Shown piece by piece: positions 33,001 through 39,000 of a DNA stretch of 64,000 nt. Position 1 is the first letter of the stretch. Every line of letters begins with the position of its first letter. Origin of the DNA: Pseudolabrys sp. (GTDB lineage Bacteria > Pseudomonadota > Alphaproteobacteria > Rhizobiales > Xanthobacteraceae); the NCBI GenBank assembly GCA_035652735.1, contig DASRDF010000014.1, positions 8,477 through 72,476 of the forward strand. The letters are read 5' to 3'. A program made the position numbers.

Positions 33001-36000
33001 ACCCAATAGCTCGATTTGGCCTGCGGCGGGATCGTGAGCGAGCGGATCGATCGCGAGTTTCTGAACGCGTCTTCGTAGACCGCGGCATTCTTCCGATGCT
33101 GGCCGAGAATGCGGTCGATGTGCGGCATCTGCGAGAGGCCGATCGCCGCCGAGACGTTGTTCATGTTGAACTTGTAGCCGACCTCACCCTCGAGAATGTC
33201 CGCGTCCCAGCGCTGTCCCTTCCACTCGCCGCGCGCATCCTTGTGTGCATCGCGGTCATAGCCGAACCACTTCAGCTTGCGCGCCAGGACGAACTGATCG
33301 GGATCGCGGCAGATCAGAGCGCCGCCGTCGCCGGACGACAGATGCTTGATCGCCTGGAAGGAATAGCAGGTGAAATCGGCGAACTCCGACAGCGGCCGGT
33401 CGCGCCAGGTGGCGCCGAATGCGTGCGCGGCGTCATGAATGAGGGGAATGCCCTTGCGGCGTGCCAGCGCATCGAGCGCGTCGAGATCGCACGGCGTTCC
33501 CGCCCAGGCCACGCACATGATCGCCTTGGTGGCGGGGGTAATCTTGCGCTCGACGTCGGCCGGATCGATCGAGGCCGTATTCGGATCGATGTCGGCCCAG
33601 ACGATCCTGCCGCCGAGATTGACGATCGGCGTATTGGTCGCGATGCAGGTCATCGGCGTGGTGACGACGTCTGTGCCCGGCCCCACGCCGCAGAGCTTGA
33701 GCGCCACCGTGAGCGTGCTCGTGCATGAATTCATCAGCACGAGCTGGCTGACCTTGAGATAGTCGCAGAGGGCGTCCTTGAACTCGGTGACCTGCAGTCC
33801 TTCGTTGACGAAGCCGGAATTGAACACCGTTCTCAGGCCGTCGAGCGCCCTCTCGGTCTCGACGTGCACTTTGAACATCGGATAGGCGGTCACGACGCGG
33901 TCCTCTTCAGAGTCGGAGCTGCAATTTCATCGATTTCGCGTCCGACGAAATCGGAAAGCTTGCGTTGGAAAATGCCGATCGATTGCAGGTATGTTTCAAG
34001 ATCGCGCTTGCTCAGCACATCTTCCGACGACGAATAGCCGAAGATTTTGGCGTCTTGTTCTACGGTGATGTGCGCGGGCGCCATACGGTAGTAGCCGTCC
34101 TTGAACTTCACGCGAACGGATTCCGGCTGGCTGATCAGGTCCTCGTGCAGCTTTTCGCCCGGCCGCATGCCGACGATCTCGATCGGCTTGCCGGAGTGCT
34201 CGGAAAATATTTCCGCAAGGTCGATGATCCGCATCGAGTGCAGCCGCGGCAGCCAGATTTCCCCGGACGCTGCGCCGAGTACGGCGGCCGAAATCAGATC
34301 GATGCTCTGGTCGAGCGTCATGACGAAGCGCGTCATGTCGCGGTGGGTCACGGTGAGGCAGCGATGGTTTTCCGCCTGCCAGCGGAACAGCGGAATGATC
34401 GAACCGCGCGATTCGAGCACGTTGCCGTAGCGCACGCCGACGAATTTCGGCCGCGGCAGCGCGAGGCATTGGCTCGTCACCAGCCGTTCCGCGATGGCCT
34501 TGCACATGCCGTAAACGTTGGCGGGCGCGCAGGCCTTGTCGGTCGAGACCATGAGAACGCAGTTCAATTCGGGAAGCCGGTCGACCTGCCGGATCACCGC
34601 GTCGATGACGTTCCTGATGCCGAGCACGTTCGTCTGAATGCTCTCGTAGGGCGTCATCTCGCAGGTATCGACCTGCTTGAGCGCGGCGGCGATGATGATG
34701 ACGGTCGGCCGAAAGCGGAGGATGGTTTCTTCGACGCGCGCGAAGTCGCGAATGTCGCCGACGGCGTAATCGATGCCCTTGGCGCCGTATTGATTGCGAA
34801 TGGTCCAGTGCTTGGCCTCGTCGCGCGAGAACAGCATCACGCTGTTCTTTGCGGTCAGCCGGGCGAGCAAGGCGCGGCCGAGCGACCCCGTGCCTCCGAT
34901 GACGAGCACGCGCTCGCCCACAAGAGTCGCTTCCTTCATCGCAAGCCTCATCGTCTCCATGGAACCGGACACGCTACCGCACCCCGGGTGACTCGCCACC
35001 CGGAGCATATTTCCTCGCACGACGGCAGCCTCACGCCGCCGCAACGCTCTCCACGTCCACCGTCACCCGGACCTTGCGGCCGAGCAAGTCGAGCAGCACG
35101 GCCACGCGGTCGCTGTCCCGCATGCCTTCGTAGAGGCCGAGGCAGTCGGCGAAGGCGCCGTCGAGAATGCGGATCCTGTCGCCCGCGTGGAAGTTTGGGC
35201 GATCCAGCAGGCGCACGAAGCCGCTCGCGTCCTCGCGCGCCTGCAACTCATGGATGACCTGGTCGGCGATCGGCGCCGGCAGATCGCCATTGCAGACGAG
35301 CCGCGACACGCCGACGGTCGAGACGATCGACCGCCAGCGCTGGGCGCCAAGATCGATGCCGACGAACAGGTAGCGGGGGAACAGCGGCGCCGGCACGATG
35401 TCGATGCGGCGCGCATGCCGCCGCCTTTTCAGGTAGCGCGGCAGATAAGTGGAGAAGCCCTGGCGCTCGAGATGCGCCGCCGCCTTGTGCTCGGCGTTGG
35501 GATGCGATTGCACGACGTACCAACGCTGGCCGTTCATTCGGCGGCTCCCCCCTGTTGCCGTATGCGCACACGCAAGAGCTCGGGAACCAGGACGCGCTCG
35601 AAGCCGAAACGGGCGGCCGCCGCTTCGCAGGTTGCGCGCGCATTGGCGACGTCCGTGATCAGCAGGGCGTCGAACGGCTCGGTCACCGCATCGAAATCTG
35701 CAAACACCGGCAGCCCGATGAAGCGTTCGCCGGCCGTGTTCGCGTCCACCACGCCGACGATTGTGATCGCCTGCTCCATCGCGCAGAGCGCGGCGATTTC
35801 CGCGAGATCGGACTGACCGACGAGCACAACGGTGCTGACCCCCGACGCCTTGGCTGCCCGGAACAGATCCGAGCAGTCCGTCTTGGCCTGGCGGAAGAAG
35901 CCGAACGAGTACGACAAATACTCGACGGTCAGCCGCGACTTTTCGGCAAAGCCCTGTGGGGTGAGGTAATAGGCATATCGGCGCGCCGGCGCCCCGCGGA

Positions 36001-39000
36001 CCTTCACAAGGCCCTTCTTCACGCAGCGTTTCAAATACGCGTTGACGAGCCCGAGGGCTATGCCGAGTTCGGAGGCGAGATGACGCTGCGAGTGGGCGCG
36101 ATCCTGCTCGACCGCATCGAGCAGCCCCAGCATGATACGTGACGCTTCGGCGTTCTCGTCCGCCAGACGACGCATACGCTTCCCCCGAACAGAACCTCGA
36201 TACGCCGTTCACAGCGTGAACGTCAAGCGTCATGTTCAGATTATGAACGCGATCGATTTGCAGGCTTAACGCGGATTCTGCTGAGAAATCAGAATACTAA
36301 CAGTCCGGCGCAATGGCGAACCGTTTTGTCTCGTCCCTGCCTGGCAAAATCGGAGCCGTATGCTCTAGTGCGCCGATGCCGCCCAGGCTTGTCTATCTCG
36401 TCACCGAAGACTGGTATTTCGTCTCGCACCGGCTGCCGATGGCGCGTGCCGCCGCCCGTGCCGGCTTCGAGGTGCACGTGGCCACGCGCGTGGCGAAGCA
36501 CCGCGCCGCGATCGAGCGCGAGGGATTCGTTCTGCATCCGCTGACATGGCAGCGCGGCAGCCTCGATCCGCTTCACCTGACCGCCATCGTGAGAGACGTG
36601 CGAAAGCTGTATCGCTCGTTGCGTCCGGCGCTGGCCCACCACGTCGCGCTTGCGCCGACGATCGTTGGTTCGCTCGCCGCGCTTGGCATGGAATTTCCTC
36701 AGCTCAATGCGCTCGCCGGGCTAGGTTTTGCCTACACATCGAGCGGGCCCAAGGCGCGCGTCGTCCGCCCGGTGTTCTCAATGTTGCTGCGGGGTCTTCT
36801 GCGGCGGCCGACGGCAACTGTGCTCGTCCAAAATCCTGATGATCGCAAGGCGCTGCAGACGATCGGAGTCCCAGGAAATAAAATCGTGCTTGTTCCGGGA
36901 TCGGGGGTTGATACGGAGAATTTGCAGCCGCTTCCCGAGCGGCCGGGTCCGATCACCATCGGTTTCGTCGGACGGCTGCTGCACGACAAAGGCGTGGCAG
37001 CCCTGGTCGCCGCGCATCAGTTACTACGAGAGCGCGGCAATCCGCTTCAGCTTCTGATCGCCGGAGAGGCCGATCCTGCCAACCCGGCAAGCATTTCGGC
37101 ATCGACGCTGACCGAATGGAAGCGGCTCGAAGGCATCGAATTCCTGGGCCACGCCGACGTTCGCGACGTTTGGCGCCGAGCGCATATCGCGGTCCTCCCC
37201 TCTCGCCGGGAAGGACTGCCACTCAGTCTGTTGGAGGCGGCAGCCTGCGCACGCCCCTTGGTCGCGACCGATGTGCCAGGATGTCGCGAGATCGCCCGCG
37301 CCAATGAGAGCGCGCTGCTTGTCGCGCCGGACGATCCGCCGGCGCTCGCCGATGCACTCGCGCAGCTTGCCGCCGATGCGGATTTGCGCCGCCGTTTGGG
37401 CGCAGGTGCCCGTCATCTGGTCGAGACGGAATTTTCCGCCGCGCGGATCGGCGACGAAATCACCGCGCTCTATCTCCGGCTCATCCAGAGCGGCGCACCG
37501 AACGCCGCTCAGTCGTCCGTGAACTTGCCCTTGTAGTCGAGCTTCAAGGCCTGATCCTGCTCGTGCTTATAGAGGATGCAGTTGCCGGCGACGAGCACGT
37601 CGATCTCCGTACCCATGAAGCACCGGAATGCGTCTTCGGGCGTGCACACGATCGGCTCGCCGCGCACGTTAAACGAGGTGTTGACCAGCACCGGGCAGCC
37701 GGTGATCGCCTTAAAACGCGAAATAAGATCGTGGAATCGTGGATTGGTTTCGCGGTGGACGGTCTGAATGCGCGCCGAATAGTCGACATGCGTGACGGCG
37801 GGTATGTCGGAGCGCGGCACGTTGAGCTTGTCGATTCCAAACAACTGGGCTTCCGCCGCGGTCATCGCCCGCTGACGCGCCGCTTTGACGGGTGCCACCA
37901 TGAGCATGTACGGAGAGTCGACGTCGAGTTCGAACCAATCTGCGACATCCTCGCGCAACACCGCGGGCGCGAAGGGCCGGAAGCTCTCGCGGTACTTCAC
38001 TTTCAAATTGAGCGTTTTCTGCATGCCGGGTGAGCGCGGATCGGCTAAGATCGAACGGCCGCCGAGCGCCCGCGGCCCGAATTCCATCCGCCCCTGAAAC
38101 CACCCGACGGCCCTGCTGTCCGCGAGCGCGCGAGCGGTATCTTCGATCAGAACAGCGTCGTCTCTAACGCTGAAGCGCGCACCGGCAGCCGCTAATCTTC
38201 GTTCAATCTCGCCCTGCGGGAACGATGGGCCCAAGTATGACCCTTGCATCAGGTCGGTGCCCGCGCAGGCGACACGCGGCTGCCCGGCATGCAGATGACA
38301 CGCCGCAAGCGCAGCGCCGATCGCGCCGCCCGCATCGCCGGCAGCCGGCTGAACCCATATTTGATTGAAGTGCCCGTCACGGAGCACCTTGCCGTTTGCG
38401 ACACAGTTGAGAGCCACACCGCCGGCGAGGCATAGGTTCTTCATTCCGGTTTCCGCCTTCAGCGCTTTGGCCGTGCGGCGCACCACTTCCTCGGTCACGG
38501 CCTGAATGGACGCGGCAAGATCCATGTGCCGCTGTTCAAGCAATTCTTCGGGCTTGCGTGGCGGAGCGCCAAACAGCGCACCAAAGCGCCGGTTGGTCAT
38601 CGTCAGACCTGTGCAGTAGTCGAAATAGTCGAGCGCTAAGCGATACGAGCCGTCCTCTTTCAAGTCGATGAGATTGTCGAGAATCGTCTGAACGTATTTG
38701 GGCTCGCCATACGGCGCGAGGCCCATCACCTTGTATTCGCCGGAATTGACCTTGAACCCCGTGTAGTAGGTGAATGCTGAATAGAGCAGTCCCAGCGAAT
38801 GGGGAAAATGAATTTCCTTCGTTAGCTGCAGTGACTGGCCTTGGCCGACACCGGCGGACGTCGTCGCCCATTCGCCGACGCCATCCATCGTCAGCACGGC
38901 CGCATCTGTGAATGGCGAGGGATAGAACGCCGATGCAGCGTGACTGAAATGATGTTCGGCAAAAAGAAGCTTGGATGGGTCGGCGAGAGCCTCGTCAATC

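Follow-up and report, generated by a model that had tools for sequence, protein, structure and literature searches.

Is the pair of genes that precedes a long polysaccharide operon of Pseudolabrys sp. (Alphaproteobacteria, Rhizobiales, Xanthobacteraceae) a two-tier regulatory device, in which a MarR-type regulator would control the initiation of transcription and an RfaH-like paralog of NusG, reading an ops element, would control elongation? This was the original prediction for the window analysed here, a stretch of 64,000 nucleotides (nt) at positions 8,477 to 72,476 of contig DASRDF010000014.1 (assembly GCA_035652735.1). The two genes, called here P0002 (the regulator) and P0001 (the RfaH-like paralog), were analysed together with related loci in other genomes. 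The comparison points, with good probability, to a conserved control head of three parts (the regulator, the RfaH-like protein and an RNA hairpin with ops) of a long surface-polysaccharide operon. The features of the locus are listed in Table 1.

Table 1. Features of the putative control head and of the operon behind it, in coordinates of the window
Feature	Position	Strand	Remarks
Polysaccharide operon, 16 co-directional open reading frames, ~18 kb	17352..34960	-	Pfam hits
Ops-like element TGCGGTAGCGTG	34970..34981	-	E. coli ops is GGCGGTAGCGTG
Conserved stem-loop GCUCCGGGUG / CACCCGGGG	34982..35006	-	3' arm abuts ops position 1
RfaH-like NusG paralog P0001	35031..35537	-	168 amino acids; NGN domain and KOW domain
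ATGA start/stop overlap, putative translational coupling junction	35534..35537	-	4 nt
Shine-Dalgarno-like GGGGAG	35545..35550	-	7 nt 5' of the P0001 ATG, within the 3' end of the P0002 coding sequence
Two-domain regulator P0002	35534..36175	-	213 amino acids; MarR_EPS-like winged helix and C-terminal domain
Domains of P0002	winged helix, residues ~14-95; α/β C-terminal domain, residues ~100-205 (window 35534-35880)	-	
Proximal 15-bp palindrome GTTCACGCTGTGAAC, candidate operator	36207..36221	.	~-46 from the regulator ATG
Distal 15-bp palindrome GTTCATAATCTGAAC (minus-strand reading), candidate operator	36234..36248	.	~-73 from the regulator ATG

The gene pair and its junction

Reading of the sequence and of its open reading frames (ORFs) confirmed both genes on the minus strand, with the 4-nt overlap that had been noted: the stop codon TGA of P0002 occupies 35536-35534, the start codon ATG of P0001 occupies 35537-35535, and the two share the sequence ATGA. 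The true start of P0001 is placed at 35537 because of homology and the conserved junction. A 400-amino acid (aa) ORF at 35031-36233 of the minus strand, which extends across the regulator gene in the frame of rfaH, was rejected as an open-frame artefact of GC-rich sequence. The three motif strings quoted for the paralog were all located in P0001: AHLERQG at residues 21-27, STVGV at residues 73-77 and LLDLLGR at residues 148-154.

P0001 matches the NusG NGN domain of Pfam (PF02357) with 74.7 bits. Among the NCBIfam models, RfaH TIGR01955 ranks first with 125.7 bits (cut-off 144.5), followed by PRK09014 RfaH with 85 (124), UpxY NF033644 with 74.5 (100), NusG TIGR00922 with 60.9 (135.7) and LoaP NF033641 with 36.4 (125); the protein thus stays under every cut-off. 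Five diverse relatives gave the same order of models, or the same order with the lowest two (NusG and LoaP) swapped, and scored 112-130 bits against the RfaH model. A phmmer search of PDB with P0001 found E. coli RfaH as the best match (1.8e-13), with NusG at 1.9e-8. The family was assigned by the ranking of hidden Markov model (HMM) scores, and by this ranking the paralog is RfaH-like, as had been proposed, and does not group with NusG, UpxY or LoaP.

Three genes with a NusG domain are present in the same genome, namely P0001 and two others, on C42 and C59. The C42 gene scores 230 bits against TIGR00922 and adjoins rplA, and is therefore the housekeeping NusG; P0001 lies outside the secE-nusG-rplK-rplA context typical of housekeeping nusG. 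The C59 gene encodes an RfaH-like paralog 43% identical to P0001, and a P0002-like gene lies upstream of it, again with an ATGA overlap. This second module (C59:8513-9900, locus L002) consists of the gene of a 222-aa regulator and, joined to it by ATGA, an RfaH-like gene whose product has retained R73 (E. coli RfaH numbering). One GTTCA-N5-TGAAC box lies upstream of its regulator and another between rfaH and a hairpin/ops element, TGCGGTAGCTAT, found 163 nt past the rfaH-like stop; the element is followed by a 299-aa ORF that we take to be sulfotransferase-like. The ops core of this module is the same as that behind P0001.

A lone ATGA overlap is commonplace in bacteria, and a 4-nt overlap is the commonest gene junction in GC-rich genomes; what exceeds chance at this junction is the conservation of the overlap, not the overlap itself. 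Among 301 genomes of the same family, 122 had a match to P0001 at E≤1e-10, and 86 loci were examined. The regulator lies directly upstream on the same strand in 67 of the 86, and the overlap is exactly 4 nt in 55 of these 67 pairs (ATGA in 48, GTGA in 7). An SD-like (Shine-Dalgarno-like) purine run is present at positions -18 to -4 of the rfaH-like start in 44/66 pairs. On the level of the class, 401 alphaproteobacterial genomes from 308 genera were sampled, and the full-length two-domain regulator was present in 86 genomes (~20%) and 74 genera. Regulator loci of other alphaproteobacterial families have a NusG paralog downstream in 26 cases out of 29, with the 4-nt overlap in 21 of the 26. Many families have retained both the pairing and the overlap although their proteins are only 40-57% identical, and such persistence of the overlap is not commonplace. 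The named relatives are Hyphomicrobiales, Pseudolabrys or "Rhizobiales" metagenome-assembled genomes. The conserved overlap and the GGAG-type Shine-Dalgarno sequence bear out the idea of a conserved, probably translationally coupled two-gene head. Stoichiometric linkage of the two proteins and feed-forward behaviour, also proposed in the original prediction, are hypothetical but plausible consequences of the anatomy of the locus.

Two other arrangements involve the same regulator family. Seven loci (L102, L103, L105, L106, L108, L110 and L113) have the 4-nt overlap to a different type of NusG paralog, with N-E-R at the positions of H20, R23 and Q24 of E. coli RfaH and without the R-W-R motif described below; the RfaH model is still the best one for this type (112.6 bits for L102). 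The two-domain regulator also has a homolog on the Chelatococcus daeguensis plasmid pTAD1 (L124, 425010-426790), which shares 4 nt with gmd and heads a GDP-fucose/ABC-transporter polysaccharide cluster that has no RfaH-like gene; its annotation reads simply "winged helix-turn-helix transcriptional regulator".

The hairpin and the ops-like element

The ops-like element of the window lies within a 70-nt gap between the P0001 stop and the first biosynthesis gene, which starts with ATG at 34960 or 34939. The related loci likewise carry, behind the rfaH-like stop, a covarying hairpin and then TGCGGTAGCnTG. The sequence [T/G]GCGGTAGC follows the rfaH-like stop in 42/46 loci of the first batch, and the stop-to-ops distance, with a median of 60 nt over the 58 pairs with a detected site, is 45-80 nt in 50 of them. 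No variation occurs at positions 2-9, and TG predominates at positions 11-12; the element, GCGGTAGCnTG, equals the E. coli ops at positions 2-9 and 11-12, and position 1 is usually T. The presence of a near-canonical ops downstream is thereby supported, the RfaH-contacting core being invariant across the related loci. For the E. coli ops it was demonstrated that positions 3-8 are required for RfaH recruitment and dispensable for pausing, that T11 and G12 set the pause, and that the element agrees with the general consensus pause (PMC5995543).

Every locus has a stem-loop, the 3' arm of which ends 0-3 nt before ops position 1. MAFFT introduced no gaps into the hairpin region and misaligned the 5' arms, and a pairing test anchored on the ops core yielded little signal, with 110 paired cells out of 172 and a mean of 98.6 under permutation. 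This test was replaced by a free-energy test on chimeras and by an alignment to a covariance model. When four linker bases were swapped between loci, the native hairpins were ~2 kcal/mol more stable than the chimeras (p=2e-5). The covariance model of hairpin and ops, built from 8 seed sequences, found one element per locus; on its alignment 83.8% of the cells are paired, compared with 76.4% in shuffles (0/500), and the covariation is 0.226 compared with 0.125 (0/500), with double changes in 6 of the 11 pairs. Controls in which the alignment was slid paired in at most 52% of the cells.

Searched against the genome of origin (4.26 Mb), the covariance model returned two significant hits and no more, each of the rfaH-like genes being directly followed by one of them. 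The bare 11-mer GCGGTAGCGTG occurs four times in this genome, at chance level (~5 copies expected by our own estimate), and hence it is the position of the motif and not the number of its copies that matters. A second match to the motif in the window, at 11366, was dismissed, as it is antisense inside a DegT gene. No Rfam family reached its gathering score over the whole window, and there was no relevant hit to the JUMPstart RNA motif at E≤10 on 34850-35150. The base of the hairpin would be 11-13 nt from the RNA 3' end at U11, a distance that fits the geometry of a hairpin-stabilised pause as established for pauses of the his type.

Three loci of the same family (L078, L079 and L080) have more distant RfaH-like paralogs, of ~40% identity, with no regulator upstream. 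A hairpin and the fully canonical GGCGGTAGCGTG lie 3' of the gene in these loci, and residue 73 of the protein is V or M.

Residues expected to read ops

The HMMER alignment of P0001 with E. coli RfaH (5OND/2OUG/8PEN) needed no gaps in the N-terminal domain, and the query numbers equal those of E. coli plus 2. Four residues of the E. coli protein, H20, R23, Q24 and T72, are kept as H22, R25, Q26 and T74, and I93 and R138 are likewise retained. Four others are replaced: R73 by V75, K10 by H12, H65 by R67 and E48 by A50. The same pattern holds for the clade, where R23, Q24 and T72 are kept, H20 is kept or sometimes replaced by N, position 10 holds Q or H, position 48 holds A, S, T or R, and position 73 always carries V, I, L, F or T; R73 is retained only in the C59-type paralogs. 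Near-invariant R-W-R (residues 67-69 of P0001, window ~35331-35339, minus strand) stands in place of H65-T66-T67, beside the ops-binding patch, and is a candidate substitute for the lost contacts of K10 and R73. We know of no aromatic residue near the flipped-out bases in E. coli RfaH.

In E. coli RfaH, ops is contacted by four side chains, K10, H20, R23 and R73, and the substitutions K10A, H20A and R73A strongly impair recruitment (PMC5995543). The statement that the paralog keeps the ops-reading residues therefore holds for H20 and R23, and also for Q24 and T72, but fails for K10 and R73, both of them substituted in the whole clade. It had further been suggested that the change at residue 73 may co-vary with T at ops position 1. 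The tallies of residue 73 against this base (V/T 19, I/T 15, F/T 13, L/T 3, T/T 2, R/T 1, V/G 6, I/G 1, M/G 1) refute this, as do three more R73 relatives, found with the covariance model, that also have T: T stands at position 1 for all four R73 proteins whose ops was located, and all eight G sites go with V, I or M.

Predicted fold state of P0001

With an alignment of 100 sequences that included the C59-like clade, AlphaFold2 (AF2) modelled P0001 at a mean predicted local distance difference test (pLDDT) score of 86.9 (85.5-86.9 over five models). Residues 121-167 are all β in this model, which thus has a β-barrel C-terminal domain (CTD) instead of the α-hairpin of the autoinhibited form. 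In Foldseek comparisons, the whole model aligns to NusG and to fully recruited or activated RfaH (8PHK, 6C6S), and the autoinhibited RfaH entries 5OND, 2OUG, 8PFG and 8PIB align over ~95-100 N-terminal columns only. In E. coli RfaH, E48 pairs with R138 in a salt bridge of the autoinhibitory interface. The E48A variant of the E. coli protein is a constitutively active control (PMC13015549). To judge from the model and from the loss of E48, autoinhibition of P0001 is probably weak or absent. The leucine-rich LLDLLGR remains RfaH-like (compare LLLNLINK of E. coli); its reading as a sign of an α-to-β fold switch is not supported by AF2, which, as a prediction, gives the β-barrel CTD.

The regulator and the upstream boxes

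P0002 matches HTH_24 of Pfam (E=5.5e-8) and also MarR_2. Its score against TIGR04176 MarR_EPS is 61.5 bits (E=6.5e-17), under the cut-off of 88, and the match covers residues 15-94 only. This model has 105 positions, and P0002 carries an additional C-terminal domain of ~115 aa outside it. Although P0002 sits in an exopolysaccharide locus, which agrees with the context of MarR_EPS, the name needs a caveat, as the score is under the equivalog cut-off and there is an extra domain. The C-terminal domain has no significant match in Pfam or PDB; weak matches below significance were seen to CoA_binding (E=0.035, for the C59 paralog) and to the N-terminus of NeuD (E=0.005). The alignment of this domain has invariant G120, S122, A125 and E126 and nearly invariant D123, which form the motif G-x-S-D-L-A-E in P0002, in a β-α-β-like pattern. 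The domain is possibly a ligand sensor.

Twin GTTCA-N5-TGAAC boxes, spaced by ~27 bp, are located at ~-75 and ~-47 from the start of the regulator gene in most of the 42 related loci examined. Four of the five copies of this sequence in the genome of origin are at the two modules; the fifth (C65:43569), between ftsZ and lpxC right after a GC-rich inverted repeat, was judged probably unrelated to the module. The conserved twin palindromes fit the initiation control that had been ascribed to the regulator, which would be the protein that binds them. A GT4 glycosyltransferase gene (36313-37536, plus strand) diverges from the same 137-bp control region with its twin boxes, so the candidate boxes may act on transcription either way. 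Beyond the GT4 gene follows a carbamoyltransferase gene (37509-39344, minus strand).

The genes behind the control head show Pfam hits to Polysacc_synt_2, DegT, ABC_tran, RmlD-like proteins, GT1 (twice), GT2, methyltransferases and an Asn-synthase-like gene. The operon thus contains a CapD/PseB-like dehydratase, a DegT aminotransferase, an ABC exporter, an RmlD-like reductase, an AsnB-like amidotransferase and several unassigned proteins.

Proposed mechanism and alternative explanations

We propose that one promoter, flanked or overlapped by the twin boxes, would give a single transcript running from the regulator through the rfaH-like gene and the hairpin/ops to the 16 biosynthesis genes. A single transcript agrees with a scan of 34800-36400, in which neither an intrinsic-terminator-like nor a strong promoter-like site was found. 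The boxes are most likely binding sites of the winged-helix regulator, which would autoregulate initiation, perhaps in response to a ligand of its C-terminal domain. The rfaH-like gene would be translated by termination-reinitiation at ATGA, helped by its own Shine-Dalgarno sequence, as its anatomy and conservation suggest, and the output of the RfaH-like protein would therefore follow that of the regulator. RNA polymerase would reach the ops core ~60 nt after passing the rfaH-like stop, with the nascent hairpin ending 11-13 nt before the expected U11 pause. The RfaH-like protein would then load through its NGN domain and make the polymerase resistant to pausing and polarity over the 18-kb operon. 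Loading would be local, with one hairpin/ops per rfaH-like gene, directly behind each of the two in the genome.

Several observations weigh against this scheme or parts of it. The promoter of the single transcript is putative, as the same scan gave no strong candidate for it. The Shine-Dalgarno sequence of the P0001 gene is its own, and coupling to the regulator may therefore be neither obligatory nor 1:1. P0001 lacks K10 and R73, two of the four ops contacts of E. coli RfaH, so that the reading of ops by this protein is deduced from co-conservation. Loci L114, L117 and L121, from three other alphaproteobacterial families, have the hairpin and ops upstream of the regulator on the opposite strand, at the head of a divergent operon; loading thus need not be co-transcriptional, and strict loading in cis is not universal. 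At many class-level loci there was no hairpin/ops within ~1 kb. As for the fold, a first AF2 run on a shallow alignment (61 sequences, 65-85% identity) reached a pLDDT of 58.6 with an uninterpretable CTD, and AF2 favours one state of fold-switching proteins (PMC13015549) and can miss the α state.

A more far-reaching version of the proposed mechanism, which we consider rather unlikely when all its parts are taken together, is that the reading of ops predates both R73 and autoinhibition, and that the clade represents a non-autoinhibited RfaH insulated by geometry and not by sequence specificity. The hairpin-stabilised pause would hold RNA polymerase ~60 nt past the stop codon, where the fresh protein from the trailing ribosome would load preferentially on the same polymerase, and the R-W-R patch would grip the flipped-out ops bases in place of K10 and R73. 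If this is true, two paralogs with the same TGCGGTAGC core could coexist in one genome without cross-talk.

Alternatively, P0001 could be a classical trans-acting, autoinhibited and fold-switching RfaH with an α CTD activated by ops, its position in the operon being incidental and the overlap a result of operon compaction. The ops core, nearly identical to that of E. coli and very strongly conserved, would suit such a protein, as would the retention of H20, R23, Q24, T72, I93 and R138 and the similarity of LLDLLGR to LLLNLINK; moreover, the divergent ops in three other families requires diffusion of the protein, and the preference of AF2 for one state of a fold-switcher is known (PMC13015549). 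However, the β-barrel CTD is predicted with confidence and the autoinhibited structures match in the N-terminal domain only, the partner of R138 at position 48 is A, S, T or R clade-wide, the stop-to-ops distance is tight (45-80 nt in 50/58 loci), and the genome has hairpin/ops sites only after its two rfaH-like genes, one site each, and therefore no dispersed regulon. We regard this explanation as improbable.

The evidence on the RNA element bears also on a second alternative, that the hairpin with GCGGTAGC works without a NusG paralog, as an element of RNA stability or processing, a Rho-blocking structure or a generic pause, and that the paralog is sequence-independent and recruited co-translationally. 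It would account for the absence of K10 and R73, critical in E. coli, for the agreement of ops with the general consensus pause (PMC5995543), and for the paralog type without H20, R23 and Q24 that is coupled to the same regulator family elsewhere. Yet the invariant positions 3-8 (CGGTAG) are those which in E. coli serve RfaH contact and are dispensable for pausing (PMC5995543), the element was found only beside rfaH-like genes in its own genome, and H20, R23, Q24 and T72 co-occur with it, which makes this alternative very improbable. Finally, that the overlap has no regulatory meaning beyond adjacency in a compact operon, with another factor bound to the twin palindromes, is hardly credible: despite the frequency of 4-nt overlaps in GC-rich bacteria and the overlap of the same regulator family with gmd, without RfaH, on the Chelatococcus plasmid, pairing and overlap are kept across many families at 40-57% identity, and the boxes are almost confined to the two modules in their own genome and lie ahead of the regulator gene in the majority of the 42 family loci examined.

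Comparison with known systems

The pairing, widespread in Alphaproteobacteria, represents a variant, embedded in cis, of the RfaH/ops system already known. It shares with E. coli RfaH/ops (PDB 5OND, 2OUG, 8PHK; PMC5995543) an NGN and KOW paralog best matched by the RfaH model and the position at the head of a long polysaccharide operon. However, rfaH of E. coli is a monocistronic gene with a product that acts in trans on several unlinked operons, whereas the gene described here is embedded in its target operon, with one cis site per paralog. The proteins differ in K10 (Q or H here), R73 (V, I, L, F or T), E48 (A, S, T or R) and H65-T66-T67 (R-W-R), in the predicted β-barrel CTD and in the score under the TIGR01955 cut-off; the ops elements differ in position 1, usually T here, and in the covarying RNA hairpin that abuts the element.

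In a survey of RfaH evolution, 18% of rfaH genes were alphaproteobacterial, and R73 was reported to have arisen late (Wang et al. 2020, PMC7593976). Clusters CL2-8 of that study adjoin envelope genes, with CL4 linked to a regulator of the helix-turn-helix (HTH) type, and CL7 lies inside exopolysaccharide operons of Shewanella, as the gene described here lies in a polysaccharide operon. However, the gene neighbourhoods in that study are given at the level of COGs only, with no 4-nt coupling, two-domain regulator, twin operator or ops with hairpin behind the gene (PMC7593976). A recent preprint found that predicted monomorphic RfaH proteins sit in or next to long lipopolysaccharide or polysaccharide operons, and revived a model of co-translational recruitment in cis (Tabilo-Agurto et al. 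2026, PMC13015549). These homologs resemble P0001 in the predicted β CTD, the gene in or near the operon and the proposed action in cis, but they are gammaproteobacterial, belong to the E. coli cluster and are reported to be constitutively active; in contrast, the strong conservation of ops here argues that ops is still needed.

The UpxY/UpxZ system of Bacteroides also has a NusG paralog at the head of capsular polysaccharide operons with a small partner gene alongside. There the partner, UpxZ, is a downstream trans-inhibitor, whereas the partner described here is an upstream DNA-binding winged HTH regulator; the recruitment element here is ops, and the UpxY model stays at 74.5 bits under its cut-off of 100. 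Compared with TIGR04176 MarR_EPS, P0002 has a homologous winged helix and is likewise found in a polysaccharide locus, but is twice as long, with the extra conserved α/β domain.

Our search of the literature found no description of the 4-nt coupling to a two-domain regulator, of the twin operator, of a hairpin with ops ~60 nt behind the gene, or of an R-W-R reader without R73. The same search found no experimental work on MarR_EPS, or on RfaH in Bradyrhizobium, Rhodopseudomonas or Azorhizobium.

RfaH is a model both for the sequence-specific loading of elongation factors and for protein fold switching. Its origin from a cis-acting duplicate of NusG has been proposed, and few natural intermediates are available. 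The clade described here combines a near-canonical ops, the loss of two of four contact residues, a natural state like E48A and a gene embedded in the operon; it can therefore serve to test directly whether ops was recognised before autoinhibition arose, whether R73 is dispensable and whether specificity can come from placement in cis. For the surface-polysaccharide operons of soil Hyphomicrobiales, the module provides a testable model of regulation that comprises an operator, a coupled regulator and antiterminator, and a pause hairpin with ops.

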